A DNA stretch of 64,000 nt from Thermomicrobiales bacterium (GCA_050696075.1 JBOGUF010000149.1:10507-74506); one strand, 5' to 3'. Shown: positions 8,055 through 39,632, counted from the stretch's first letter. Translations and numbers: made by a program. The notes: generated by a model from the sequence alone, not told the origin.

Positions 8055-9041
8055 CTAGTATGAAGGAACGGAGAGGAAGGCGATGACCTCATGGAGCAGT
8101 TGGGAACGGCCGCGCTCGTGCCGGTCGTTGAACAGATAGTGCGTGCCGTCCGGGATGGTGACGCTCCGCACCCGTTGGGCGTTGACCAGATCCTGTTCGA
8201 GCGCCGTTATGTCCACGGGGCGGGACCAGAAGTCGCGCTCGCCGCGCACGATGAGGGTGGCGGCGCGGATGTCTGCCGCGTCCCACTCTTTCCGTCCGCG
8301 CGTCAACTCGTAGCTCTCGCGTTGGAATCCAGTCGGGACGCGCATACTCGGTGGATTCCGCGTCTGGCTCGTCGGGTCACTGGCCAGCGCTTCGCGGGCG
8401 TAGGCGTCGGCGACGCGCGGGTCGCGCCATTCAGTCTTGTCCTCGACTGGGATCGTGCGATCCCACGAGGCGAGCAGACTCTCCGCCGTGCGGAGTCCGT
8501 AGGCGCCGATGGCGCGGTCGAACTCGCCGGGGCGATCCGAGGCCTCGAACCACGCCGCGATCGGCCAGGCTGCTTCGATGCCATAGATTGTGTTGAGCAG
8601 CACGAGGTGGCTGATGCGGTCGTTGTGTCCGGCCGCGTAGGCGGCGGCCCAATGCCCACCGGAGGCCCAGCCGAGGATCGCGACCCGTTCCACGTTGCGT
8701 CGTTCCCGGATGGTGTCGACGACCGCGCCAATGTCGCGCGCGGCTTCGGCGCAGCGCACGGCGGGCGGGTTGTCGGCAGCGGGCGCATCGAGGGCCGGGG
8801 GGCGTGTCGACCCACTCCAACCGCGCACATCACTGACGTAGACCGCGTGCCCGGCCATCGCGAGGTCGTGGGCAAGCGAGTAGCCAGGCACGGGCAGATC
8901 GAACGACGCGAGTCCGCCCGGCCCACCGCCGTGAACGAGAAGCAGCGGCGGTAGGTCGGCGGAGGCGCTGGCCGGTTTGATCTCGCGTACGAAGATGCTG
9001 ATGCCGGGTTCGCTGGTCGCGAAAAGGTCGGTTCGATCCAT
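8055..9041 (-). CDS. alpha/beta hydrolase
   Basis: 328 aa. LLLVHGGGPGG oxyanion region and the nucleophile elbow GWASGG. Start abuts the stop of the LuxR gene. Confidence 0.85.
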   Translation of the reverse strand: MDRTDLFATSEPGISIFVREIKPASASADLPPLLLVHGGGPGGLASFDLPVPGYSLAHDLAMAGHAVYVSDVRGWSGSTRPPALDAPAADNPPAVRCAEAARDIGAVVDTIRERRNVERVAILGWASGGHWAAAYAAGHNDRISHLVLLNTIYGIEAAWPIAAWFEASDRPGEFDRAIGAYGLRTAESLLASWDRTIPVEDKTEWRDPRVADAYAREALASDPTSQTRNPPSMRVPTGFQRESYELTRGRKEWDAADIRAATLIVRGERDFWSRPVDITALEQDLVNAQRVRSVTIPDGTHYLFNDRHERGRSQLLHEVIAFLSVPSY

Positions 9042-11468
9042 TCAGATAATCCCCAACTGGAAGCCGAGGGCGACAGCGGCGGCGCGGTTGTCGATGCCGA
9101 GCTTGACGAAGATGTTGGTGACGTGGGTGGTGGCGGTGCGGTGGCTGATGAAGAGCGCCTCGCCGATCTCGCGGCTCGACTTGCCCTCAGCCAGCAGGCG
9201 CAGCACTTCCAACTCGCGGGGCGTGATACCGGCACTCTCGGCGGCGGTGCGGACGGCGGGCGGGGCGGCAGGGTGGCTGGCGACGATCGCCGCGGCGTCG
9301 GCCACCGCCTGTTCGAGGGAGAGGTCGCGGCCGGCGATCCAGGCGGCGCGGAACCCTTCTTCGCCGAGCTGCTGCTTGGCAAGGGCGGTCGCGCGGTCGT
9401 ATTGGGCGCTGATGTAGGGTTGGAGGCTGAGGCCGATTCCCTCGCGGAGGGCGTCGGCGGCGGCGAAGAGGCGGACGGCGACCTCCGCCTGCTGGTGGGC
9501 GGCGGCGATGGCGGCGAGCCCGTGCAGGATCTCGACGACGCCCCACGGGTCGCGGTCGCCTTGTTCCCAGCCAAGGGTAAGGCTCTCGCGAAAGAGTTCG
9601 GCGGCGCGCTCGTCGTCGCCCTGGGCACGGGCGTAGATGGCGAGGTTGAGGAGGGCGGTGCCGATGCCCCAGATGTTGCCGAGGCGGCGCCAGCGGTCGA
9701 GCGCCTCCTGGTAGTGCCCGCCGGCGGCTTTCCAATTGCCGCGCTCGAAGGTTTCGATGCCGAACCGGTTGAGGGCGAACGGCACCCACGCGTCGTCGCC
9801 GAGCTCGTGGAAGAGGGCGAGGGCCGATTCGGCGTGGGAAGCCGCGTCGTCATGGTTGCCACGGGCGCCCTCGGCGAAGCTGAGGGTGAAGAGGCCACGG
9901 GCCCGGATTCGCGTGTCGCCGGCGTCTTCGGCAATGGCGATGGCTTCGCGCGCGAGATGGGCGCCGCGTTCGCCGTCGCCTTGGACGCTGGCGAAGAAGG
10001 CGGAGGCGAGCATCGCCCGCGCGCGGACGATCGGCGACACCTCGTCGGCCGCCGCGAGGAGACGGTCGTACCACCCGCGCCCTTCGGTGAGGTAGCCGCG
10101 CGTTTGCCAGAACCACCAGAGTGCGCGGGCCAGGCGGAGCGCCGTTTCGGGATCGCGTTCGGCGCTCCAGTCGAGCGCGGCGCGGAAGTTGGCGTGCTCC
10201 CATTCGAGCCGGTCGAGCCAGGCGATCTGGTCCAGGCCCCAGACGGCCGGTTCGGCTTCCTCGGCCAAAGCCAGCGCCCAGGCGGCGTGCCGCGCCCACG
10301 CCTCATCCTCTTCACCGGCCGCCACGAGTTGCTCGATCCCGAACTCGCGGATCGTTTGGAGCATCCAGAATCGCGGTTCCCCGCCCCGCTCGTCCTGTCG
10401 CAGCAGGCTCTTGTCGACGAGGGAGGCGAGACCGTCGAGGACGGAGTCATGCGTCGTGAGTCGTGGGTTGTGCGTAGCTCGTTCGTTGTTCCTCACGTCT
10501 CGCGACTCACGGCTCACGACTCGTTCGGCGGCGTCGAGCGAGCAGCCGCGGGCGAAGACGGCGAGGCGGCGGAAGAGGGTTTGCTCCTCCTCGTCGAGCA
10601 AGTCGTAGCTCCAGGCGATGGCGTCGCGCATCGTTTGGAGGCGGACAGGGAGGTCGCGCGGGCCGCCGGTGAGGACGTGCAGGCGGTTGGTGAGGCGAGC
10701 GAGCAGGGCTTGCGGCGAGAGGACTTTGACGCGGGCGGCGGCGAGCTCGATGGCGAGCGGCAGCCCGTCGAGGCGGCGGCAGATCTCGGCGACCGCGGCG
10801 GCGTTCGCCTCGGTGAGGGCGAATTCGGGACGGACGGCGCGGGCACGTTGGAGGAAGAGGGCGACAGCGTGGTTCGCCTCGAGATCGCCAAGCTGTGCGA
10901 TGCGGCCCGCGGGCAGCGGCAGTGGCGCGACCGGGAATTCATGCTCCCCGGTGAGGTGGAGCGAGACCCGGCTGGTAACGAGCGCCTTGACGCCGGGACA
11001 GGCGGCGAGCAGATTGGTGATGACCGGCGCGGCGGACGCGACCTGCTCGAAGCTGTCGATCACCAACAGCAGCGACTGGTGATGGAGCAGACGGTGGAGG
11101 CGCTGATCGACGGGCTCGTCGCCCTCATTGCGCAAATCGAACGCGCGCGCGATAGCGGGGAGGACGAGGGCGGGGTCGCGGATGGAGGCGAGGGGCACGA
11201 ACCAGACACCGTCGGGGAAGGCGTCCCGGAGGTCGGTGGCGGCTTGCAGGGCGAGGCGGGACTTGCCGACGCCGCTCGGTCCGGTCAGGGTGACGAGAGG
11301 GACGTGCTCCTCGGCGAGCAAGGCGCGGACGCCGGCGATCTCCTCGTCGCGGCCGATCAGGGGAGTGCGAGGCGTCGGCAGGCGCGCTCCGCCGCCCCCA
11401 TCGGGGCGGCGGAGCGGGGTCAGCATCGTTGGGCGCGTCTCTGGAGCCGCGGGCGTCGGGGTGGACAA
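9042..11468 (-). CDS. LuxR-family transcriptional regulator with N-terminal AAA/NB-ARC-like ATPase and TPR region
   Basis: 808 aa. Walker A GPSGVGKSRL, TPR-like repeats, and a C-terminal LuxR HTH (TPRELEVLRLLAEGKSSREIGEALFISHRTATTHVTNIFVKLG). Confidence 0.9.
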   Translation of the reverse strand: MSTPTPAAPETRPTMLTPLRRPDGGGGARLPTPRTPLIGRDEEIAGVRALLAEEHVPLVTLTGPSGVGKSRLALQAATDLRDAFPDGVWFVPLASIRDPALVLPAIARAFDLRNEGDEPVDQRLHRLLHHQSLLLVIDSFEQVASAAPVITNLLAACPGVKALVTSRVSLHLTGEHEFPVAPLPLPAGRIAQLGDLEANHAVALFLQRARAVRPEFALTEANAAAVAEICRRLDGLPLAIELAAARVKVLSPQALLARLTNRLHVLTGGPRDLPVRLQTMRDAIAWSYDLLDEEEQTLFRRLAVFARGCSLDAAERVVSRESRDVRNNERATHNPRLTTHDSVLDGLASLVDKSLLRQDERGGEPRFWMLQTIREFGIEQLVAAGEEDEAWARHAAWALALAEEAEPAVWGLDQIAWLDRLEWEHANFRAALDWSAERDPETALRLARALWWFWQTRGYLTEGRGWYDRLLAAADEVSPIVRARAMLASAFFASVQGDGERGAHLAREAIAIAEDAGDTRIRARGLFTLSFAEGARGNHDDAASHAESALALFHELGDDAWVPFALNRFGIETFERGNWKAAGGHYQEALDRWRRLGNIWGIGTALLNLAIYARAQGDDERAAELFRESLTLGWEQGDRDPWGVVEILHGLAAIAAAHQQAEVAVRLFAAADALREGIGLSLQPYISAQYDRATALAKQQLGEEGFRAAWIAGRDLSLEQAVADAAAIVASHPAAPPAVRTAAESAGITPRELEVLRLLAEGKSSREIGEALFISHRTATTHVTNIFVKLGIDNRAAAVALGFQLGII
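10453..10523. repeat. inverted heptamer arrays (GTCGTGA / TCACGNC) embedded in frame in the LuxR CDS
   Basis: Left arm gtcgtgagtcgtgggttgtgcg. Spacer tagctcgttcgttgttc. Right arm ctcacgtctcgcgactcacggctcacgactcg. The element encodes RVVSRESRDVRNNERATHNPRLTTHD. Confidence 0.8.
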
Positions 11469-23602: not shown

Positions 23603-23701
23603 CTACATCGCCCGCCGTGCTTCCAAGTCCTCGAACTGGTCGTCGCGCCAGACGGGGATGTCGCGGTCGGGGTCGCCTTCGGGGCAGATGGGTTTGGCGG
23701 C
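23603..23701 (-). pseudogene. copy of the thyX-like gene 3-prime end (fragment)
   Basis: Reverse translation gives AAKPICPEGDPDRDIPVWRDDQFEDLEARRAM*. The thyX C-terminus is AAKPICPEGERYCGIPVWREYQFEELEARRVM*. Confidence 0.85.
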
Positions 23702-24510: not shown

Positions 24511-24610
24511 TCGTCAATTCCTTCGAGACCACGACGCTGGATTCGACGTGCGATATTCATGCTGTCGTAGCGTTCGCTCGTTTCGGCTCCTTTGGGACAG
24601 CGACTTCTCG

Positions 24611-24686
24611 TTAGATCACCCGCCGCTTCTCCAACTCCTCGAACTGGTCGTTGCGCCAGACGGGGAGGCCGCGGTCGCGCTCGCCG
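24611..24686 (-). pseudogene. copy of the thyX-like gene 3-prime end (short fragment)
   Basis: Reverse translation gives ERDRGLPVWRNDQFEELEKRRVI*. Confidence 0.8.
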
Positions 24687-28219: not shown

Positions 28220-28354
28220 TCACATCACCCGCCGGTTCTCTAATTCCTCGAACTGGTAGGCGCGCCAGACGGGGATGCCGCAGTAGCGTTCACCTTCGGG
28301 GCAGATCGGTTTAGCGGCGGAGCGGGCGCGCATGACGCGGGGGGCCGTCGACGT
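28220..28354 (-). pseudogene. copy of the thyX-like gene 3-prime end (fragment)
   Basis: Reverse translation gives (YVDG)PPRVMRARSAAKPICPEGERYCGIPVWRAYQFEELENRRVM*. Nucleotide similarity to 34132-34270 is obvious by eye. The stop sits at the end of a short CTGAATC/CTGTCCC heptamer array (28201-28221). Confidence 0.88.
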
Positions 28355-28370
28355 AAGAACAAGCCGGGCA

Positions 28371-29103: not shown

Positions 29104-29229
29104 TCACATCACCCGGCGCGCTTCCAACTCCTCAAACCGGTCGTCGCGCCAGACGGGGAGGCCGCGGTCGGGGTCGCCGTCGGGGCAGATCGGTTTGGCG
29201 GCGGAGCGGGCGCGCATGACGCAGGGGGA
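29104..29229 (-). pseudogene. copy of the thyX-like gene 3-prime end (fragment)
   Basis: Reverse translation gives PPCVMRARSAAKPICPDGDPDRGLPVWRDDRFEELEARRVM*. It begins 9 nt after the stop of the anti-sigma-like gene. Confidence 0.88.
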
Positions 29230-29238
29230 GGCCGGCGA

Positions 29239-29583
29239 TTAGGCGGGCGGTCGGCGGGCCACCTGCCCGCGTCGCGAGCCGACGACGGACCATCCAACGG
29301 CGATGAGAAGGAGGAACAATCCGACGACGCCGACAACTTGCGACGCGCGCCGACGCCGGTGCGCCGCGCGCAGGTCATGACGCCGCGCGAATTGGGCGAC
29401 GATCGCCGCCCGCGCCGCCGGGTCGTCGACGCGGGGATAGTGCTCCTGCAGCAGCCGGGTGACGTCGTCGTCGGTTTCCAGCCGCGACCATCGCGGCCCA
29501 CGGATCGTGCGCCCGGTGTCGTCGGAGTCTCCGCCATCGGTTGCCGCCGGGTGATCGCCCGGCAGTCCTTCGGGAGTCGGCAT
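29239..29583 (-). CDS. putative anti-sigma factor / single-pass membrane protein
   Basis: The ATG at 29583 lies 17 nt after the sigma gene stop and has a GAGGG RBS. One TM helix (VVGVVGLFLLLIAVGWSVVG). The assignment rests on position downstream of the ECF sigma gene. Confidence 0.55.
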   Translation of the reverse strand: MPTPEGLPGDHPAATDGGDSDDTGRTIRGPRWSRLETDDDVTRLLQEHYPRVDDPAARAAIVAQFARRHDLRAAHRRRRASQVVGVVGLFLLLIAVGWSVVGSRRGQVARRPPA

Positions 29584-29599
29584 CGTCGTCGGTACGCCC

Positions 29600-30196
29600 T
29601 CAGCCTTCTTGCTCCGCGTCCCGAACGTACGCATCGTAGCGCAGTCGGAACTGTTGCTGCGCCCGGCTGATCCGGCGTTCGGCCGCGGCAATGGAGATCC
29701 CGAGGACGCCGGCCACCTCCGGGGCGGTGAGCCCCTTCAGGCTGTGCAGAAGCAGCGCCTCGCGCAACGCCGGACTGAGGTCAGCAAGCACCCGCTCGAC
29801 CAGCTCCCGTTCGCCGACGACGGCGAACTCGTCGGGTTGCCGCGATCCAGAGAGGACTTGCTCGGCCTGCCCCGGCTGTTCGCGCAGCCATTCCATCGAG
29901 ACAACCTGCCGCCGTCGCTGCTTCCGCCGCGCCGCCCGCAGGCGGTTCTGGGCGATGCGATAGAGCCAAGCGCCGAAATCGCGTTCGGCCCCCGGCTGGT
30001 CGAGATCGATAAGCGTGACGAGGAAGCTGTCTTGGGTGAGGTCAGCGGCCAGATCCGGATCGCCAGTGCGGCCGGTGAGGTAGCGCACCAGGAGCGGGTA
30101 GTAGCGCTCGACCAGGACCGTCCAGGCGGTCTCTGAGCCCGCGCGGGCGGCCACGACGAGCTGGGAGTCGGTGGACGAAGCGTCGGCGGAGGACAT
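29600..30196 (-). CDS. RNA polymerase ECF-type sigma-70 factor
   Basis: 198 aa. Region 2 (YYPLLVRYLTGRTGDPDLAADLTQDSFL, WLYRIAQNR) and region 4 (LKGLTAPEVAGVLGISIAAAERRISRA). Confidence 0.9.
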   Translation of the reverse strand: MSSADASSTDSQLVVAARAGSETAWTVLVERYYPLLVRYLTGRTGDPDLAADLTQDSFLVTLIDLDQPGAERDFGAWLYRIAQNRLRAARRKQRRRQVVSMEWLREQPGQAEQVLSGSRQPDEFAVVGERELVERVLADLSPALREALLLHSLKGLTAPEVAGVLGISIAAAERRISRAQQQFRLRYDAYVRDAEQEG

Positions 30197-30408
30197 CGTT
30201 GGCCCCAGAGCGAGCGGTCACTCTGCTTCTCCGCTCGATCTTTGTCCGGGGTAGTAGAACTCGAGATGCCAAACAAATGAGGAGGATGGGCTGGCCCGTT
30301 GTGGCTACGGCACGGCCAATCGGAGGTTGATGTCCGGTTGTGGGTCCCTCATGCACTTAACAGAGTAGAAGGACGTAGCTGCAGGGATACGCGACGGAGA
30401 GCGGAAGC

Positions 30409-31056
30409 ATGGAAGGATGGTGGCTAGCCTCCTACATAGGACTCTGGGGAGCAGTACTTCTCCAAGTGCTCGTCATCCTGGGGCTCGCGCGAGAAGTCGG
30501 GACCATGCGTCTCCATGACGGTTCCCCAGGCGCGCTAAAGTCGGATGTCGGACTCGCTCAGGGCAGCGCCGCTCCTGAGTTCGCGGCGACGGAGGTGCCC
30601 AGCGGTCGAGTCGTTCGCTTTCATGCTGCGGAGCGGCACCGGACGTTGTTGACGTTTGTTGCACCGAAATGTGTCCCTTGCCACCGGCTACTGTCCGAAA
30701 TTACAGGTGGTTGGGGCGATTCGAGTCGGAATCTTCGAGTCCACGTGGTCTGCGAGGGAGACGAAGCCGAGGCGAGTGCATTGCTGCGACAGATTGGCCT
30801 CAGGATACCTCTGCTCTCTGACCCCGGTGCCAAGATACGTGGGTTCTACGGCAATCCCCCGATTCCATTCGCGTACCTGATCAATGAACGTGGAGTCATC
30901 GCACAACGGGGCATTGTGAACACCCGCAACGATATTGAGCGGCTAATCGATGGCCATACTCACCTGCCACACGGGCATGATGGGATACCTGAAAGCCCAT
31001 CACCCAGCGGAACGATGTCGGCATCGGAAATCCCGGCCCAGTCGGGGAGGAGCTAG
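30409..31056 (+). CDS. MauD-like membrane-anchored TlpA/redoxin-family thiol-disulfide oxidoreductase
   Basis: 215 aa with an N-terminal TM helix, the CxxC motif PKCVPCH, and LINERGVIAQRGIVNTRNDIERLI resembling the MauD C-terminal region. The MauD comparison is from memory. Confidence 0.75.
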   Translation: MEGWWLASYIGLWGAVLLQVLVILGLAREVGTMRLHDGSPGALKSDVGLAQGSAAPEFAATEVPSGRVVRFHAAERHRTLLTFVAPKCVPCHRLLSEITGGWGDSSRNLRVHVVCEGDEAEASALLRQIGLRIPLLSDPGAKIRGFYGNPPIPFAYLINERGVIAQRGIVNTRNDIERLIDGHTHLPHGHDGIPESPSPSGTMSASEIPAQSGRS

Positions 31057-31059
31057 TTC

Positions 31060-31494
31060 ATGGAAAAGTGGATTGACGCCTTGTCATCAAGGCTGGCCCA
31101 GCGAACGTCGCGGAGAGGCGTGATCGGATTGAGTGGTCGAGCGCTCCTAGCTGTCAGCGCCGCCATATTCGGGATGGCTGCTAGGTCGGATAGCGTGGCC
31201 GCTGCCTGCTCAACATGTGGCGGTGGCGGATGCAGCGACGGCGTCGGCCGCCCCTGCGGCGGCACCGGCAACGGAACCTGCTATCCCCAATCGCTCCGGC
31301 TGTACGGTGGTAACTGCACCACCGGCGGCAACTGTAACGCGGCGGCTGGGCTGACAAATGGCTGGGTCTGGTACTGCTGCGATCCGCACTTGCAGATTAT
31401 CAAGTGTCAGGATTGCTGCGACAGCGATACCTCGGAATTCGTCGGCTTTTGCCAATCGTTTACTGGTTCCTACTGCGCCTCGCCAACGCCGTAA
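31060..31494 (+). CDS. Tat-exported cysteine-rich protein, methylamine dehydrogenase light chain (MauA)-like
   Basis: 144 aa. Leader MEKWIDALSSRLAQRTSRRGVIGLSGRALLAV resembles the long MauA Tat leader. The mature part has 14 Cys. TNGWVWYCCDP...QDCCD resembles the MauA ASWVASCYNP...RDCCG block. Confidence 0.65.
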   Translation: MEKWIDALSSRLAQRTSRRGVIGLSGRALLAVSAAIFGMAARSDSVAAACSTCGGGGCSDGVGRPCGGTGNGTCYPQSLRLYGGNCTTGGNCNAAAGLTNGWVWYCCDPHLQIIKCQDCCDSDTSEFVGFCQSFTGSYCASPTP

Positions 31495-31578
31495 GGACTG
31501 TCAGGCAGTAGAAGCGGAGGACGTGGGTTCTCTTGGCTGGAAACAGTTCATCTGAAGCTAGACGGTAAGGAGGTAGTC

Positions 31579-31743
31579 ATGGCGGGAATTGGAGCCCACG
31601 CTCGCTTAGTTACCGCGGCGACAAGCGGAGCGGTAGCAACAGCCGTCGTGGCCACAATAGGATGGTCACTGACCTGGGTGCTGTTCACCGGCAGCTTGGT
31701 GTTGGAGAGCGTTGTCGGGATGTCCAAGGCCAGCACTGCCTGA
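31579..31743 (+). CDS. small hydrophobic protein (54 aa), below ORF-track cutoff
   Basis: Manual translation gives MAGIGAHARLVTAATSGAVATAVVATIGWSLTWVLFTGSLVLESVVGMSKASTA*. It is preceded by a strong RBS (taAGGAGGtagtc ATG). Confidence 0.55.
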   Translation: MAGIGAHARLVTAATSGAVATAVVATIGWSLTWVLFTGSLVLESVVGMSKASTA

Positions 31744-31752
31744 GGGCTATCG

Positions 31753-32379
31753 ATGATCGGGACGATCAGCCCCCTCGTGCAGGAGGCGCGAAGCCAATGG
31801 TGGCAAAGCAGCGCCCTTCATTCCCTGGGAAGTGTTGCGGGCGGAGTGATCACATTGGGGGCGCTGGGAGGGCTCGGTTACTTCCTCATGAGGGGAATTG
31901 ATCAGACCGCACGCTGGGCAGCCTTCGGTCTGATCACCCTCTTGCTGGCTTTAGGGGAGTTGGATGTGCTTCGGTGGCCGCTCGTGCGGACCGCACGGAG
32001 CGTCCCCAAGTCTTGGTGGCAGGATTGGGGCCCGAGACGAGGAGCGTTCACCTACGGGTTTGTCCTAGGGCTGGGCGTCACTACTGTCATTCCGTTTGGA
32101 ACCTACTACGCAATGGCCGCCGGAGCGCTTCTCGTGGGCGATATCCTCTACGCCGTAGGAGTAGGTGTCGCATACGGTCTTGGTCGTGCCTTACCAGTTC
32201 TCGTCGTGGGTGCAGCCTTAGTGTACCCCCACCATGCGGCCACACCGCGGGTGGTCACGACGCAGATTACAGAGAAGATACTCGGCTCTCGGAGGACCGC
32301 ACATCTGGTTAATGGCCTTGTGGGGGCGAGCTTTGCGGGAGCAACCGCAATAACTGTGGCAGTGAGCCTATGGTCATAA
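31753..32379 (+). CDS. integral membrane protein (DsbD_2/CcdA-like topology, no Cys)
   Basis: 208 aa with about 6 predicted TM helices and Gly-rich helices. Family assignment is tentative. Confidence 0.65.
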   Translation: MIGTISPLVQEARSQWWQSSALHSLGSVAGGVITLGALGGLGYFLMRGIDQTARWAAFGLITLLLALGELDVLRWPLVRTARSVPKSWWQDWGPRRGAFTYGFVLGLGVTTVIPFGTYYAMAAGALLVGDILYAVGVGVAYGLGRALPVLVVGAALVYPHHAATPRVVTTQITEKILGSRRTAHLVNGLVGASFAGATAITVAVSLWS

Positions 32380-32849
32380 CTGATGTAAAGGATAACGATC
32401 GTTCCTGTGAAGTCGTCTGCGTGACAACGCGCTTGCGTTTCCGAGGGCTGTGCGCACTCGTCAAGTTTCTCCTTGCTTATCGGCACGTACGCCAGGACTT
32501 GCATGGTGCTCTTGGATTGATGCATGTGTCACTCGTGTGGGAGCGGCCCTCTACTGTCTATATTCTCTCCATCTGGCGTTCGGAGGAACTAATGCGTCGA
32601 TGGGTTGGCACCGAGGCCCATGTAAGTGCGGTTCGCCAAACGTACCGCAATCTCACGCACGAAACATGGTCGGGTCTGTGGCGGCTCAATGCCGTTAGCC
32701 CAAGCGCGCGGCGTTGGCCGTCGGCTCCAACGATGGAGGCGACACCGCCGGTATGCGCCCCCGGAGTTCCGGATTGGCCATCTCCAGGGCGCAGCAGCCG
32801 GACGTGCGACTTGATCACGAATATCCTTGCGACAATGTGGCGAGTATAA
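32370..32849 (+). CDS. hypothetical protein (possibly DUF3291/ABM-like)
   Basis: 159-aa ORF. VTTRLRFRG...LSIWRSEELMRRWVGTEAHVSAVR resembles the DUF3291 pattern. Weak call. Confidence 0.4.
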   Translation: MVITDVKDNDRSCEVVCVTTRLRFRGLCALVKFLLAYRHVRQDLHGALGLMHVSLVWERPSTVYILSIWRSEELMRRWVGTEAHVSAVRQTYRNLTHETWSGLWRLNAVSPSARRWPSAPTMEATPPVCAPGVPDWPSPGRSSRTCDLITNILATMWRV

Positions 32850-32976
32850 ACATAATGTAATCTACGATACATCATGTTTGGACGATCGACAGGGTGCAGA
32901 CGAACCAGTTGGCACTTTAGGCAGTATGGTTGATGGATTGTGCCATGCGGGGTATTGCATCTAGCACACGAGGAGG

Positions 32977-34080
32977 ATGCCGATGTCATGGGTGCGTAGG
33001 CTGGTCGGGATCGTTGCCGTGACCGTGCTCGGTCTGGGCGCCACCGCGCATGCCGATGTCCCTGCCGCGCCGGCGCGAGACTTCGTCGCTATCGAAGAAC
33101 GGGGCGTCGTGCACGTTGTCGATCCGGCTACTGGTGACGTGTGGGAGCAGTTAGGAGGTCACGGCGCCTTGGCGAGCGTGGCCGCCACGAGTGGACACGT
33201 CTATGTCAGCGTGGCATCGACCGATGGCAGTGGCACCATGGTGTTCGCCATTTGGATGCCGACCGCCCACCGCGAGTCGATCGGGCATCTGCCGGAGGTG
33301 GCGTTGGCAAACAGGCTGTCTCCGACCGGCGACCGCTTATATGTGACCGCGTTCGTGAACGGCTCCCCCATCACGACGCCCAGCGCGACGATCAGCTTGC
33401 CCCTTCCCGACGGTGGGCTGACCAAGCCCGACAACACCGCCGCCCGCGACGCGGGTGGCGGTGTCCTATCTCCCGAAGGGACGCGGTGGTATCGTCTACG
33501 CACCCTATGGAAGGAGGATCGGATAGAGGGGGTCGAGTTGCAAGCGCTGGCCTTCCAGGAGGGGGGCACGCCAATCGAATCGACCCTCCGGCTGCCGATG
33601 TCCGACTACCACTCGCTCCTCATGGCGCCGAACGGACGCACCCTGTTCGCCGTCGACTACGGAGGTGCGTTCAACCAGCAGCAAACCATTCACGTTATCG
33701 ACGCCGGACATGATCAGCCTACTCTGGCGCGGTCGATTGCGATCCAACGGGGGCCAACAAAGGCCCTGCTGTGCCAAGCTGCCCTCTCACCCCAGGGTGA
33801 CCGACTGTATGTGGCATCACACGACGGCCCAGCCCGGCACGGGATATTGGTGTTTGACACCGACTCCTGGGAGCGGGTTGCGCACCTACGCCCGGATGAC
33901 GCGTATCGGTGCCTGGTCGTCTCCCCCGATGGCGACCGGCTGTACGGGGCAGCAAAGGCCTCGGGCGGGTATGCTCTGGTGACGATCGACGCGCGGACGG
34001 GGGCTGAGCTCCGGCACGTGCCGCTGGAACTGGACAGCGGCTGCTGCCCGTCCGTTCTTCTGGCAGTCGCCTCTGAATGA
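32977..34080 (+). CDS. secreted beta-propeller repeat protein (YVTN/YncE-like; possible amine dehydrogenase heavy-chain analogue)
   Basis: 367 aa with a signal peptide (VLGLGATAHA). Repeated SP.GDRLYV motifs (LSPTGDRLYVTA, LSPQGDRLYVAS, VSPDGDRLYGAA). The stop lies 51 bp from the convergent thyX stop. Confidence 0.7.
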   Translation: MPMSWVRRLVGIVAVTVLGLGATAHADVPAAPARDFVAIEERGVVHVVDPATGDVWEQLGGHGALASVAATSGHVYVSVASTDGSGTMVFAIWMPTAHRESIGHLPEVALANRLSPTGDRLYVTAFVNGSPITTPSATISLPLPDGGLTKPDNTAARDAGGGVLSPEGTRWYRLRTLWKEDRIEGVELQALAFQEGGTPIESTLRLPMSDYHSLLMAPNGRTLFAVDYGGAFNQQQTIHVIDAGHDQPTLARSIAIQRGPTKALLCQAALSPQGDRLYVASHDGPARHGILVFDTDSWERVAHLRPDDAYRCLVVSPDGDRLYGAAKASGGYALVTIDARTGAELRHVPLELDSGCCPSVLLAVASE

Positions 34081-34131: not shown

Positions 34132-35871
34132 TTACATCACTCGCCGTGCTTCCAACTCCTCGAACTGGTACTCCCGCCAGACGGGAATGCCGCAGTAGCG
34201 CTCGCCTTCGGGGCAGATCGGCTTGGCGGCGGAGCGGGAGCGCATGACGCAGGGGGGGCCGTCGACGTAGCGGCCGATGGTGGGGTGGACTTCCCGGATT
34301 TGGGCGACTTCCTGGCGGGCGGTGGCGAAGATTTCGCGCTGGGCGTCGTAGCAGAGGCGCTTGATCCACTTCCAAAAGTAGGTGAGTAGGGTACCGCTCT
34401 CGTAGAAGCGGACACGGTGGGCGTTGGGCAGGAGGTAGAGGGCGACTTCCGGGGCGACGCCCTGGTCGAGCAACGCGTTCTTCGCGTCCCAGAGCGCTTG
34501 GACGGTGGCGTCGTACTCGGCGCGGGCAGCCGGGTTGCGGGCAATGGCCCAGGGGAGGATGACGTCCGGGTCGCGGCGGAGGTGGGCGCTGAGGATGGGG
34601 CCGGAAGAGAGGGTGCCGCGGTGGCGCTGGTTTTGGGCTTCTTCCGCGCCGCTGATGCGCTTCTGGAAGGTGAAGGGAACGTGGTTCATCGTTTGCATCA
34701 GCTTCGAGTGCATGCCGAGGAAGAGGGCGTGGCCGAGGTACGGATTCTGTGAGCCATCGAGGACCTGAGCGATGGCGTCCTCGTCGGAGAGGGCGTCCGG
34801 GGTGAGGCCGAGGACGGTGCGGACGGCGTCGGCCATCGTCCGCTCGGCGGCGGGATTGTGGCTGATGAGCTTGCTGTCGAGGTCACCGAGCTCCTCGTCG
34901 AAGCGGCGGCAGAAGGCTTCCGTCTCCTCCGGGGTTTGGGCGAGGTTGGCTTGCCAATTGGCCAAGGCCTCAGCTTCGAGCGTGTCGTCGGTGCTGAGGG
35001 CGCGCAGATCGAGCGGGTGGTCGGGCGCGCCGAGGAAGTAGGGATCGAGGGCGAGGACTTCTTCGACCATGCGGTTGACGATGAAGCGGACCTCGGTCGG
35101 GGCGTCCGGTTGGTTGGCGAGGGCGTGGTAGCGGAGCAAGGTGAGCCCGTTGACGGTGTGATAGAGGTGGGCCGGGGTGGCGAGGGGGAGGACGTAGCGG
35201 GCGACTTCTTGGGCGCGCTTCTGGACGGCGCCGGCGACGCGCTCCTCGGCCCGTGGCCCCTTCGCCTTGGCACGGGCGGGAAAGACGGTGGCGTAGTCGC
35301 GCTGAAAGTCGGGGATGAGGATCTCGGTGAGGCGGCGGTAGCCCTCGAGGCTGCGCTCGATGGCGTCCTGGTAGATCGACAGCATCGGCTCGGGCAACGC
35401 CGGCGTGACCATGACCTTGCCGGAGACTTCGCGGTAGCGCTGGGAGACCTGCTCCGAGTTATAGAAGGGGTGGGCGTGGAAGAAGGACCAGATCGCCAGG
35501 CGGGAGACATTGTCGAGGACGAAGACGAAGGTGGCGTGCTGGAGGGTGGTGTGGTGGCCGGCGGCGAAGAGATCGGCGTAGAGCTTGAGGGTGCGCTGGC
35601 GGCGGTCTTCGCGTTCGGCGGCCTTTTCCGGGCTGAGACCTTCCGGGGCGGGGCCGTGGATGAGTTTGAGGACGTTCTCGACCTTGGCCGGGCGGGCGCC
35701 GTAGCAGGACCAGGCGGCGGCGACGGAGAGGGCGAAGGGGTGGTGGCTCGATTCGTCGCGCAACAGGGTGACGACGGGCGCGGCGGAATGGAACGGCGAC
35801 GGTGCGTGGCCGTTCGATGTCGCGGCCGGTGTTTGGGTGGTGGTTGGTTGTTCAATCACGGTGGCCGACAT
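34132..35871 (-). CDS. thyX: FAD-dependent thymidylate synthase ThyX-like, long two-lobe form with Cys-rich C-terminal tail
   Basis: ThyX motifs HHTTLQHATFVF..SEQVSQRY (first lobe, with RHR degenerate) and QNQRHRGTLSS (second lobe). Start placed at the ATG at 35871, with a GGAGG RBS 10 nt upstream. The track ORF N-terminus (MLRCLSMTT) is a translated REP element. Confidence 0.85.
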   Translation of the reverse strand: MSATVIEQPTTTQTPAATSNGHAPSPFHSAAPVVTLLRDESSHHPFALSVAAAWSCYGARPAKVENVLKLIHGPAPEGLSPEKAAEREDRRQRTLKLYADLFAAGHHTTLQHATFVFVLDNVSRLAIWSFFHAHPFYNSEQVSQRYREVSGKVMVTPALPEPMLSIYQDAIERSLEGYRRLTEILIPDFQRDYATVFPARAKAKGPRAEERVAGAVQKRAQEVARYVLPLATPAHLYHTVNGLTLLRYHALANQPDAPTEVRFIVNRMVEEVLALDPYFLGAPDHPLDLRALSTDDTLEAEALANWQANLAQTPEETEAFCRRFDEELGDLDSKLISHNPAAERTMADAVRTVLGLTPDALSDEDAIAQVLDGSQNPYLGHALFLGMHSKLMQTMNHVPFTFQKRISGAEEAQNQRHRGTLSSGPILSAHLRRDPDVILPWAIARNPAARAEYDATVQALWDAKNALLDQGVAPEVALYLLPNAHRVRFYESGTLLTYFWKWIKRLCYDAQREIFATARQEVAQIREVHPTIGRYVDGPPCVMRSRSAAKPICPEGERYCGIPVWREYQFEELEARRVM

Positions 35872-35930
35872 CTCCCGCATGCCTCCATTAGGCCGTATTT
35901 GCACACTGTCATCCGGCGGCGGCGGGCGCT

Positions 35931-36024
35931 CCGTCGTCATGCTGAGGCAGCGAAGCATCCCCGCGCGCCGCGCCGACGGACCGGCTTCGCCGGGGGATGC
36001 TTCGGCTTCGCCTCAGCATGACGG
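35931..36024. repeat. REP/MITE-like nested palindrome, copy 2
   Basis: ccgtcgtcatgctgaggcagcgaagcatccccgcgcg...cgccgggggatgcttcggcttcgcctcagcatgacgg. Flanking ttagg..tttgca / gcaaac..ccctaa extensions reach about 35888-36047. Confidence 0.85.
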
Positions 36025-37132: not shown

Positions 37133-38002
37133 CTACGAAGCCCCTCCGGGACCGCGGACATCGCGGCCCGTGTGCAATCCCGACGGAGGTTGGTGGGTTG
37201 CGGAGTTTGGCACGGATGGTGGGGCGGGCCAGTCGAAGACGTCGAAGACTTGGGGGGCGAGGGCGGGTGGTGGCGGCAGGTAGCGATCGGCGCGGACCAT
37301 CGCTTCGACGTAGTCGTAGATGGCGACGACTTGCTCGTCGCCGGTGATTGAATGGATCCAGATCTGGTGGCCGGCGAAGAGGAGGAGGGCGACGTTGGAG
37401 AGGGCGCAGGGGCCGAGGCAGCCGCCAATAGAGAGGTGGACCTTGTGGCGGATGCGGCGGCGGGCCCATTCGCGGTGATAGAGGTCGGTGGGGACGGGGG
37501 CGTGGCCGCGTTCGGTGTGGCCGCAGCAGCAGCCGGTGGCGCAGACGAAGAGTTGCCCCGGACGGCGAAAGACGTTGATCGGCTCGCCGTCGCCACGCCA
37601 GACGATATTGCGCACGGCCGAGGTGTGCGGCGAGCGGGTGAGGCTGTCGATGGCGTCCGAGGTGGTTTCGTAGTGCTCGTGGTCGTCGTAGACGCCCGCG
37701 GCGTGCTCGGCGGTGCGGGCGTCGAGCTCGTCGGGGGTGATGAGATTCGTCTCGATCAGGAGGCGCTCGAAGGAGGCGAGCCAGCGCTCGTAGTAACCGG
37801 AGTCGTCGCCGTGCCCCTCGGCGGCGGCGATCTCGGCGGCGAGGCGGGCGCGGAAGTCGTCCCAGGGAAACTGCTCGGCGTCGCTGAGGGCGACGGCCAT
37901 GCCGAAGATGCGGCCCTCCCAGGGGGCTTCGAAGACCAACTCGCCGTTGCGGCGGGGGACGGCGAGGTCGTCGCCGAGCTCTTCGATACGGTGATCGGAC
38001 AT
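37133..38002 (-). CDS. nitrile hydratase accessory protein fused to a Cys-rich ferredoxin-like domain
   Basis: The N-terminal ~100 aa (ELVFEAPWEGRIFGMAVALSDAEQFPWDDFRARLAAEI...YYERWLASFERLL) match NHase activator proteins. The C-terminal half has FVCATGCCCGH and GGCLGPC. Confidence 0.7.
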   Translation of the reverse strand: MSDHRIEELGDDLAVPRRNGELVFEAPWEGRIFGMAVALSDAEQFPWDDFRARLAAEIAAAEGHGDDSGYYERWLASFERLLIETNLITPDELDARTAEHAAGVYDDHEHYETTSDAIDSLTRSPHTSAVRNIVWRGDGEPINVFRRPGQLFVCATGCCCGHTERGHAPVPTDLYHREWARRRIRHKVHLSIGGCLGPCALSNVALLLFAGHQIWIHSITGDEQVVAIYDYVEAMVRADRYLPPPPALAPQVFDVFDWPAPPSVPNSATHQPPSGLHTGRDVRGPGGAS

Positions 38003-38019
38003 CGCCGCGCTCCTTGCCG

Positions 38020-38628
38020 TCAGCCCGCCAGCCCGGAGGTTGCCGGCGCGGCCACCTTGGCGACGCCGATCATGGCGTCGCGGGTGACGAGCGCGGCGAG
38101 TTCTTCCTCGGTGAGGTGATCGGTTCCGGCGGGGCGTTCCGGGAGGATCATGTAGCGTTGGTCGGCGCTGCTGTCCCAGACGTGGATCGTGACGGTCTCG
38201 TCGATGTCCAGGCCGAACTCGGTAAGCACCTCGCGCGGCTCGATAACGGTGCGGGAGCGGTAGGCGAAGCTCTTGTACCAGGTCGGAGGCAGCCCGAGCA
38301 CCCTCCAGGGATAGCAGGAGCAGAGGGTACAGACCACGAGGTGGTGGTCGGTCGGCGTGTTCTCGATCACGACGAGGGGGGCGCCGCTGGGGATGCCGAA
38401 ATCGGTGATGGCCGCGCCGGCGTCGTGGAGCAGGCGCTGCTTGAAGGCGGGGTCGGACCAGGCGCGGGCGACGATGCGGGCGCCCATGAGCGGACCGATG
38501 TCCTGCTCGAACTTGCTGATTTGAGCGTCGACGGCCTCGGCGGAAATGAGTCCCTTTTCGATGAGGAGCGACTCGATGGCTTTGGTGCGCAACGCGACAT
38601 ACGGTTCCTGTTCCGGGTCGTACGGCAT
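38020..38628 (-). CDS. nthA: nitrile hydratase alpha subunit, cobalt type
   Basis: Metal-binding signature VCTLCSCYPW (the Thr/Tyr variant is cobalt-type). Start at the ATG at 38628 with an AAAGGA RBS. Confidence 0.92.
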   Translation of the reverse strand: MPYDPEQEPYVALRTKAIESLLIEKGLISAEAVDAQISKFEQDIGPLMGARIVARAWSDPAFKQRLLHDAGAAITDFGIPSGAPLVVIENTPTDHHLVVCTLCSCYPWRVLGLPPTWYKSFAYRSRTVIEPREVLTEFGLDIDETVTIHVWDSSADQRYMILPERPAGTDHLTEEELAALVTRDAMIGVAKVAAPATSGLAG

Positions 38629-38663
38629 GGCGCGCATCCTTTCGGCGGCTGTCTGGTCAGACG

Positions 38664-39332
38664 TCAGGACGAGGTGGGTTCGAGGTAACTCTCCCAGAGG
38701 TCGATGTTGAGCATTTGGCACGGCTCGGCGGGTTTGCCCCAGAGTTCGCGGCTATCGAAGCGGACGTTGTAGACGACTTGCGGGTCCGCGCCCAGGCCGT
38801 GGGCGTTGGTGTCGGGGAAGATTTCTGGACCATGGACGAGATGGATGACGCCCTGCTTGCCGCGAGCGTAGCGTGGGAGCCGGGTATGGCCTGTCGGATG
38901 GACGTTGCGGGTGACGACCGGGTCGCCGACTGAAAAGCGCGGCGTCAACCGCGGAAGCGGCGCGTGCGAGGTCTCGCGCGGCGACCACTGAGGGGGCGCG
39001 GCGGTGGGCCGAGGCAGGGGGGCGTCGGGATCGGAGCGAAGTCGTTCCGTTCTGGCGTCAAGTTCGTCGGCGGTGAGGATGCCCGCCTGGATCAGGTTGT
39101 CCTCGATGGTGGCGAGCCAGCGCTCGTAATAGGTCGAGCGCAGGTAGTGGGCGGGGTCCATGCGTTCGATGCCGTAGCGGAAGGCGTCGAGATTGAAGTA
39201 GCCCTGGCCGAGGGTGAGTTGCTGGAGGGCGAGGACGTGGGCTTCCCACGCGGCATGAAAGAGCGGCTCGTCCTTCTCCCGCGCGATCGGTCCAAAACCG
39301 TGCATCCCGCCGAGGTCGTGGACGCCGTTCAT
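38664..39332 (-). CDS. nthB: nitrile hydratase beta subunit
   Basis: Starts MNGVHDLGGMHGFGPI, the canonical NHase beta N-terminus. 222 aa. The upstream part of the track ORF belongs to a hydrolase relic. Confidence 0.92.
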   Translation of the reverse strand: MNGVHDLGGMHGFGPIAREKDEPLFHAAWEAHVLALQQLTLGQGYFNLDAFRYGIERMDPAHYLRSTYYERWLATIEDNLIQAGILTADELDARTERLRSDPDAPLPRPTAAPPQWSPRETSHAPLPRLTPRFSVGDPVVTRNVHPTGHTRLPRYARGKQGVIHLVHGPEIFPDTNAHGLGADPQVVYNVRFDSRELWGKPAEPCQMLNIDLWESYLEPTSS

Positions 39333-39396
39333 GGCTCGTCTCCCACCGTGTCGCGCCATCCGCATTGAGATCGTACCGCATCGGCGGCGTCCGGTG

Positions 39397-39632
39397 TCAG
39401 GCTTTCGATATTTCGTCTCGGAAAGAGAGGAGGGCGTCGGCGACGGCGCCGGGGTGGGTGTAGATGACGCCGTGGGGGGCGCGGGGAACATCGACGCGCT
39501 GAGCCCGTGAATGAGGAGGATGGGCGGCCCCGTCCATTGCGGTGGACCTGGCCAGACGCGGGCGTGCCAGCGGCGACCTTCGACGGTCTGCACACACCGG
39601 ACCGGACGTGGCGGGGAGTAATCGGTAGTCAT
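39397..39632 (-). pseudogene. alpha/beta hydrolase relic (N- and C-terminal pieces joined, frameshifted)
   Basis: One frame gives ..WTGPPILLIHGLSAS, a hydrolase N-terminus. Another gives QRVDVPRAPHGVIYTHPGAVADALLSFRDEISKA*, a hydrolase C-terminus. The catalytic core is missing. Confidence 0.55.

Follow-up and report, generated by a model that had tools for sequence, protein, structure and literature searches.

The mau gene cluster of Paracoccus and Methylobacterium, in which the canonical gene order is mauF-B-E-D-A-C-J-G, encodes methylamine dehydrogenase (MADH) together with proteins of its biogenesis, and MauF, MauE and MauD are required for the small subunit of this enzyme according to the genetics of van der Palen et al. 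1997, as cited in PMC7794033. MauE with a CXC motif has been described as a DsbB-like oxidase that substitutes for DsbB and operates outside methylamine metabolism (bioRxiv 10.64898/2026.03.05.709764). Here we analyze a related cluster, located at 29,239-34,080 of a 64,000-nt stretch of DNA from a Thermomicrobiales bacterium (GCA_050696075.1 JBOGUF010000149.1:10507-74506), hereinafter the window, to which all coordinates refer unless a related locus is named. A previous examination of this stretch (the sequence-only reading) proposed a relationship with the mau gene set. This relationship is borne out more fully than first seen: the cluster encodes a MauD-like redoxin, a small cysteine-rich protein with a MauA-type leader and a homologue of MauF, and four of its relatives encode MauE as well. 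The MauF-like gene contains an in-frame UGA codon, and the sequence comparisons described below make it likely that this gene represents a new family of selenoproteins, a selenocysteine (Sec)-containing MauF homologue, within an undescribed MauF/E/D pathway that would fold a new class of hyper-disulfide proteins exported by the twin-arginine translocation (Tat) system.

Translation of the window recovers every open reading frame (ORF) named in the sequence-only reading at the same position. Co-occurrence of these genes in other genomes had been proposed as a check on that reading, and the gene set indeed recurs in seven loci from independent assemblies (designated by L numbers where they have to be told apart). 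The conserved gene order is redoxin, Cys-rich protein, short hydrophobic ORF, membrane protein and ABM-like protein, with or without a propeller gene. The genes that flank this set vary between the loci, which fits a mobile unit.

A MauF homologue with an in-frame UGA codon

A 54-aa hydrophobic ORF (31579-31743, plus strand), preceded by TAAGGAGG, is followed by a 208-aa ORF without cysteines (31753-32379, plus strand). The two ORFs share a reading frame and are separated by a single TGA codon at 31741-31743. The sequence-only reading took them for a separate 54-aa peptide and a Cys-less protein with 6 transmembrane (TM) segments. Both ORFs exist, but most likely they are parts of one gene that is split by the TGA and, with the UGA read as Sec, would encode a single MauF-like membrane protein (31579..32379, plus strand). 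The 208-aa part matches the profile PF13386, DsbD_2, with 29.5 bits, just past the Pfam cutoff; the other family members and MauF itself reach no Pfam model, and no NCBIfam model, those of selenoproteins included, matches either the joined protein or MauF. A word-based homology search with the joined protein returns three matches, the results being swamped by hydrophobic candidates.

An hhalign comparison of the 208-aa downstream part alone with the MauF of the Methylobacterium mau cluster gives the probability of 88% (E 3e-6), and when the seven joined sequences, with X in place of the TGA, are compared with two MauF sequences, the probability is 97% (E 1e-10) over 169 columns, and the alignment is ungapped through the TGA. 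The joined proteins score 76.4 against MauF; column shuffles score 13.5+/-2.6 (maximum 23.3), block shuffles 32.2+/-3.9 (maximum 44.1), and the reversed target 20.3. These comparisons identify the joined protein as a homologue of MauF. In the hhalign alignment, the TGA lands on Cys86 of MauF, in the motif L-L-S-T-W-S-P-C-G-Y-S-S, and this is the only cysteine of the motif that is kept in both MauF sequences (Methylobacterium and Paracoccus). According to a MAFFT alignment, the residues invariant across the joined proteins and MauF are G47, U/C55, G56, S58 and P65. The joined proteins and MauF have one U/C position, with no further cysteine conserved, in contrast to the redox pair of DsbD and CcdA, which is formed by residues of TM1 and TM4.

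Each of the seven loci covering the region contains the in-frame TGA, typically in the context ...SKA(S/T)TA-TGA-G(L/A/G)S-M(I/V)GTI(S/A)PLVQ.... The most distant locus, L006, whose membrane protein shows 32% identity, reads ...GWTQIGGV-TGA-GLSLLGALTPLVKV..., and the residues past the UGA are conserved as G-x-S-x6-P, L006 included, with the G, S and P being invariant with MauF. The codon and a SECIS-like (selenocysteine insertion sequence) stem-loop together span 31741..31776 (plus strand); the stem-loop has an upper hairpin at 31754-31768, a GGA loop and an outer stem GAGG/CCUC. Folding of the seven loci with RNAfold and RNAalifold shows a hairpin with a G-rich loop that begins 11 nt past the UGA (UGAUCG-GGA-CGAUCA in the window copy). 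Two of its pairs are compensatory. Global recoding of UGA was considered as well and is ruled out: among the ordinary stop codons of the window, TGA is the commonest, and it ends most of the ordinary genes there, which indicates that the genetic code is not globally altered.

The alternative that has to be weighed is that the UGA is an ordinary stop codon and that coupled translation yields two separate products, a small membrane peptide and a 6-TM protein without cysteines, with UGAGG serving as the ribosome-binding site. Several observations weigh on the side of this alternative and against Sec. In six of the seven loci, an ATG is located exactly 9 nt past the TGA, with GAGG between them, an arrangement that permits the two-protein interpretation with UGAGG as the Shine-Dalgarno sequence; gene callers split the gene everywhere; and the upstream 54-aa peptide alone shows no significant alignment to MauF. 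None of the Rfam SECIS models matches the stem-loop, a result that is uninformative because bacterial SECIS elements are poorly covered there. Finally, among the four features by which bacterial selenoproteins are usually recognized, three, namely the conserved in-frame UGA, a Cys-containing homologue and a downstream hairpin, are present in full or in part; with regard to the fourth, the presence of selA, selB, selC and selD in the host genome, the 64-kb window contains no tRNA gene and no Sec-related gene among the genes examined. The two-protein interpretation nevertheless sits poorly with L006, where no ATG, GTG or TTG occurs until 12 codons past the TGA, yet the intervening GLSLLGALTPL is conserved as protein. 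Furthermore, MauF continues through this point as a single polypeptide and has its sole conserved cysteine exactly at the position of the UGA; the spacer past the TGA varies chiefly at third codon positions; and the hairpin is kept despite sequence change, in L006 and L013 with a shifted register. We consider termination at this codon unlikely. The UGA at 31741-31743 is probably read as Sec, in which case the joined protein would be a new selenoprotein. Selenoproteins are found in some Chloroflexi (PMC1794560), and a 2026 review of the prokaryotic selenoproteome (PMC13188914) lists neither MauF nor any methylamine-related family.

The MauD-like redoxin and MauE

The gene at 30409..31056 (plus strand) encodes a thioredoxin-fold redoxin that is anchored in the membrane through its N terminus, contains the motif CVPC and matches Pfam AhpC-TSA. 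The resemblance to MauD that had been noticed from the sequence holds in part: TIGR02661, the MauD model, is the best NCBIfam match and covers the full length, with 67.3 bits, which is under the equivalog cutoff of 188.6, and a genuine MauD scores 372.9 bits against the same model. The redoxin and genuine MauD align end to end with 29% identity (E 5e-17). MauD is also the top model for every cluster redoxin. Homologues of the redoxin are present at all related loci, and in all loci the gene is located directly before the gene of the Cys-rich protein, either adjacent to it or overlapping with it. The redoxin of L005 (100-756 in that locus) contains C-G-S-G where all others have CxxC, that is, the second active-site cysteine is lost.

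In L002, L004, L006 and L013, a gene for MauE (PF07291) is located directly 5' of the redoxin gene. The resulting order mauE-mauD-small protein is the same E-D-A order as in the canonical mau cluster. All four of these MauE proteins retain the C-x-C motif. Thus, the statement of the sequence-only reading that mauE is missing is true of the window (tblastn) but not of these four relatives, and its statement that mauG and cytochrome genes are missing is upheld for the window, where MauJ is absent and amicyanin genes were not found either. Involvement of the cluster in cytochrome c maturation, with CcdA- and ResA-like components, was also considered; it is ruled out given that there are no cytochrome or heme-handling genes and that MauD and MauF are the best matches.

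The Cys-rich protein, the ABM-fold protein and the propeller

The small protein encoded at 31060..31494 (plus strand) consists of 144 aa and, as described in the sequence-only reading, is a Tat-exported protein with a MauA-like leader and 14 cysteines. It contains a twin-arginine leader and a mature part, from about residue 49, that includes all the cysteines and the motifs GWVWYCC and CQDCC. Five relatives were identified among 5.8 billion proteins, and HMMER, run in full against 1.84 billion representatives, identified 48 family members, which are 100-150 aa long and contain 8-20 cysteines; the mature protein encoded in the window comprises roughly 95 residues. The family is characterized by the common leader MD.WIE.LS..LA.RTSRRG.IG..G and the core C-P-x-G..G-W-x-W-Y-C-C..C-Q-D-C-C..C, in which W104, C92, C106, C116 and C119 are invariant and D118 is nearly invariant.

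When a profile of 36 family members is compared with the PDB, the sole significant match is the precursor of the MADH light chain, 3c75_L (E 3.8e-10). An hhalign comparison with 39 MauA sequences yields the probability of 98.4% for the full length and 98.7% for the leader alone (E 2e-16). A hidden Markov model (HMM) built from the leader only assigns 24-48 bits to MauA leaders and 7-12 bits to ordinary Tat signals, and the likeness to MauA extends beyond the generic Tat motif, into the residues ahead of the twin arginines. These matches indicate that the long leader is specifically of the MauA type. In L017, a 1.6-kb Logan contig, the MauA-type leader is fused straight onto a propeller (242-1330, protein P0022) and the mature Cys-rich domain as well as the MauF-like and ABM-like genes are missing, which could result from a natural deletion or from chimeric assembly.

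The sequence-only reading suggested a divergent amine-dehydrogenase-like or otherwise cross-linked redox protein. The most explicit version of this alternative holds that the Cys-rich protein is a shortened homologue of MauA, with a Trp-derived cofactor on Trp104 that is made with the participation of an ABM oxygenase, and that the propeller is the heavy subunit of such a quinoprotein. In addition to the MauA-type leader and the mau-like neighbors, this possibility draws on the mature sequence itself, where the elements C-P-x-G...W...C...D-C-C are colinear with MauA, such that Cys92, the aromatic residue 102, Cys106, Asp118 and Cys119/120 fall on Cys46, Trp57, Cys61, Asp76 and Cys77/78 of MauA, and where Trp104 is invariant. 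This Trp, however, is displaced by two residues from the position that aligns with Trp57, and the family is too short to include the region around Trp108 of MauA, the second Trp of the tryptophan tryptophylquinone (TTQ) cofactor. Hence the proposal that this Trp is replaced by Phe is right in that the Trp is lacking, but the entire region is absent. Nor does the mature domain show significant similarity to the MADH light chain. The protein sequence has no match at E<=1 in Pfam or NCBIfam, including PF02975 and the NCBIfam light-chain model; the family profile does not match the mature MADH chains in the PDB; and a profile-profile comparison of the mature domains gives P of 0.02-0.06, with 22 of the 200 column shuffles scoring as well, which is not above the null expectation. 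An AlphaFold2 (AF2) model of the mature domain shows a compact fold with a predicted local distance difference test (pLDDT) score >90, for which a Foldseek search identifies no significant neighbor in the PDB; the 50 best matches listed do not include a MADH light chain.

The two remaining genes of the operon bear on the same question. The first encodes a 159-aa protein without a signal peptide (32370..32849, plus strand) that appears to adopt the ABM fold, a dimeric alpha-beta barrel, with Pfam matches to ABM/af470-like models under the cutoff. The window copy scores 19.3 bits against PF03992, for which the cutoff is 23.1, the best-scoring homologue reaches E 6e-6 in the ABM match, and profile matches to ABM-fold structures are weak. 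ABM-fold homologues are encoded in all seven loci, as would be expected if they contributed an oxygenase to a quinoprotein. The second gene (32977..34080, plus strand) encodes a secreted seven-blade beta-propeller of the YVTN type. A profile of this protein compared with the PDB identifies a YVTN S-layer protein (2.6e-24), hydrazine synthase beta (1e-15) and the beta subunit of quinohemoprotein amine dehydrogenase (QHNDH; 2e-7), as well as YncE. The profile also reaches the MADH heavy chains, but only with 8e-5 to 4e-4, behind the YVTN, hydrazine synthase and QHNDH propellers, and there is no match to PF06433, the MADH heavy-chain family to which the sequence-only reading had looked. That the profile reaches the QHNDH and MADH propellers is a point in favor of the quinoprotein. 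Judging from all of these matches, the propeller is a member of the broad YVTN group rather than of PF06433. It is encoded in the window and in L001, L002, L003 and L007, which form one subclade, and the lack of this gene in two loci, together with the lack of MauG, amicyanin and cytochrome genes in the window, counts against a dehydrogenase.

The pattern of cysteines points in the same direction. Their number is even in 31 of the 36 family members, which argues for a protein in which all cysteines form disulfides and against a Cys-Trp cross-link, for which no free cysteine would be left. The cysteines of the Cys-rich protein are thus probably all engaged in disulfides, seven in the window copy. 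Taken together, these comparisons make a quinoprotein improbable and characterize the 144-aa protein as one that combines a MauA-type leader with Mau-type neighbors, apparently not as a MADH light chain, with no positive sign of a cross-linked cofactor.

Regulation, distribution and mobility

A gene encoding an extracytoplasmic function (ECF) sigma factor (29600..30196, minus strand) is divergent from the operon. Regions 2 and 4 are both present (Sigma70_r2, r4_2), the match to TIGR02937 has 71.8 bits with the cutoff of 42.9, and the protein is 49% identical to the sigma factor encoded at the same position in L002. Of the sigma/anti-sigma pair that was originally proposed, the sigma factor is thus recognized by family matches, whereas the partner ORF (29239..29691, minus strand; likely start ATG 29634 or 29583), which encodes a protein with one C-terminal TM segment, matches no family in Pfam or NCBIfam. 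The anti-sigma label of this putative protein is a guess from the position downstream of the sigma gene. The 10-mer ATGTCCGGTT (30330..30339, plus strand), followed by GGGTC, is common to the window and L002 (at about 1311), being located 5' of the operon in both, and these two loci are the ones that carry the ECF sigma factor. This motif may be the promoter element recognized by the ECF sigma factor of the cluster. The type of regulator varies: L003, L004 and L013 encode LuxR-type proteins instead. In L013, a metagenome contig, the cluster is followed by an 826-aa ORF (8407-10887 in that locus, minus strand).

The cluster is rare and patchily distributed. A search with the MauF-like alignment found no relatives among 185,579 GTDB species genomes. 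The DNA pattern W[YF]CC...CQDCC has five matches in GTDB genomes, all by chance, and a tblastn search of 72,556 plasmids produced no match. All these scans are pattern-based, and distant members could be missed.

Pfam and NCBIfam scans show that the cluster adjoins thyX, and its boundaries are marked by direct repeats. The left edge is a copy of the 3' end of thyX (29106..29238, no strand assigned), which is 86% identical over 133 nt to the genuine thyX 3' end at the right edge (34133..34270, minus strand). Altogether, the last ~100-135 nt of thyX occur in five direct copies, with 81-87% identity (23604-23701, 24610-24685, 28222-28355, 29106-29238 and 34133-34270). These copies bound four cassettes that are stacked 3' of thyX: the thyX-proximal, 4.9-kb mau-like cluster and three others that contain, respectively, a DUF3368 protein (~0.9 kb), an IS256-type transposase (3.5 kb) and a VapBC-like pair (0.75 kb). 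This arrangement looks like the outcome of repeated site-specific insertion at the 3' end of thyX, and no integrase or recombinase is encoded among the window genes examined. The GC content is about 0.61 in the cluster (30001-34000) compared to about 0.68-0.69 around it, and the third-position GC is lower too, which is consistent with horizontal acquisition. The direct-repeat flanks and the lower GC fit the mobile unit that had been suggested from the sequence. The thyX gene itself (34132-35958, minus strand) encodes a 608-aa product that contains two Thy1 stretches and is roughly double the usual length. Beyond thyX, there is a nitrile hydratase alpha/beta set with an extra beta-N-terminal-like protein (37133-39632, minus strand), apparently unrelated to the cluster.

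A rare, mobile and patchy cluster with an ECF sigma factor or a LuxR-type regulator depending on the locus could also belong to a system of the RiPP (peptide synthesized by the ribosome and modified post-translationally) or bacteriocin type, in which MauE/MauD-type enzymes would introduce the disulfides of the Cys-rich protein, itself secreted as a toxin or an antimicrobial, with the propeller in the role of an immunity protein or a binding protein. There is a precedent in Streptomyces, where MauE and MauD homologues encoded beside Cys-rich precursors (at least 8 Cys) have been flagged as candidate RiPP families (PMC7794033). The leader described above, however, is no RiPP recognition leader but a Tat signal, with AxA as the cleavage site; there is no protease, transporter or core RiPP enzyme in the cluster; and a mature part of about 95 residues with a compact predicted fold is not what this explanation leads one to expect. 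We regard it as highly improbable.

A proposed oxidative folding module

By analogy with MADH biogenesis, in which the small subunit depends on MauF, MauE and MauD, the explanation that we favor on balance is that the cluster is a self-contained module for the export and folding of one disulfide-rich client, the 144-aa protein, through oxidative folding of the MauF/E/D type, rather than a TTQ enzyme. Under this hypothesis, the client precursor would leave the cytoplasm via Tat by means of its MauA-type leader. Outside the membrane, the anchored MauD-like redoxin would form and shuffle the disulfides of the client, seven in the case of the window, and MauE, where present, would re-oxidize the redoxin through quinones. 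The MauF-like protein, a distant relative of DsbD, could be a redox partner or an isomerase with a single highly reactive residue, here Sec. In the subclade that includes the window, the folded product probably would bind the co-encoded secreted propeller. The weakest step of the scheme is the one in which the ABM-fold protein might act in the cytoplasm as a chaperone or an oxygenase. Expression of the operon would be driven by the ECF sigma factor.

Some of the results speak against such a module. The window does not encode MauE, which in this scheme would supply the oxidizing power. Homology between the mature client and MauA is not demonstrable, the link to Mau being made by the leader and the gene order. 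The propeller is absent from L006 and L013, and the roles proposed here for the propeller and the ABM-fold protein are guesses.

To our knowledge, the role of MauF in MADH biogenesis has stayed unassigned since the 1990s. If the UGA indeed encodes Sec, the Sec/Cys pair would mark Cys86 of MauF as a catalytic redox residue, and the natural occurrence of Sec at the one conserved cysteine of MauF, together with the distant link to DsbD, predicts that MauF is a redox catalyst, which would be the first mechanistic handle on this protein. The MauF/E/D set would be a portable oxidative folding module with clients beyond MauA, which agrees with the finding that MauE is a DsbB-like oxidase and extends it. 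The cluster also adds a candidate family to the bacterial selenoproteome, and the secreted, very Cys-rich proteins that it encodes make up a newly defined rare family.

Comparison with known systems

Among the systems that resemble this cluster, the MauE-dependent disulfide pathway (bioRxiv 10.64898/2026.03.05.709764) is a generalist one, whereas here MauE, when present, is encoded in a dedicated operon with one predicted client and MauD- and MauF-like partners. The Streptomyces families detected by decRiPPter (PMC7794033) are similar in that MauE and MauD homologues are encoded beside small proteins with at least 8 cysteines, outside methylamine metabolism; compared by description, not by sequence, they differ in that neither a Tat leader of the MauA type nor a MauF-like selenoprotein, an ABM-fold protein or a propeller is mentioned in the source. 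DsbD and CcdA (PF13386) share with the MauF-like protein the multi-pass topology and the location of the reactive residue in an early S/T-P/A-[C/U]-G motif, but the MauF-like protein has one reactive residue in place of the Cys pair of TM1 and TM4. TsoB (NF045694), a selenoprotein in which a rhodanese domain is fused to DsbD, provides a parallel for the predicted use of Sec in place of a redox cysteine, in a thiol-oxidoreductase setting and with a Cys-containing homologue in existence.

The closest system remains the mau cluster of Paracoccus and Methylobacterium. The two have in common the MauD-type redoxin, MauE (in the relatives of the window cluster), a MauF homologue, a long twin-arginine leader on a small Cys-rich protein, the order E-D-small subunit and a seven-blade propeller gene in the operon. 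They differ in that MauG, MauJ, amicyanin and MauL/M/N are missing here, the propeller does not belong to PF06433, an ABM-fold gene is added, and the small protein shows neither detectable homology in its mature part nor the second TTQ Trp. The host, too, is different, a Thermomicrobiales metagenome-assembled genome as opposed to a proteobacterial methylotroph, and in place of the codon for the conserved cysteine of MauF, the cluster contains UGA.

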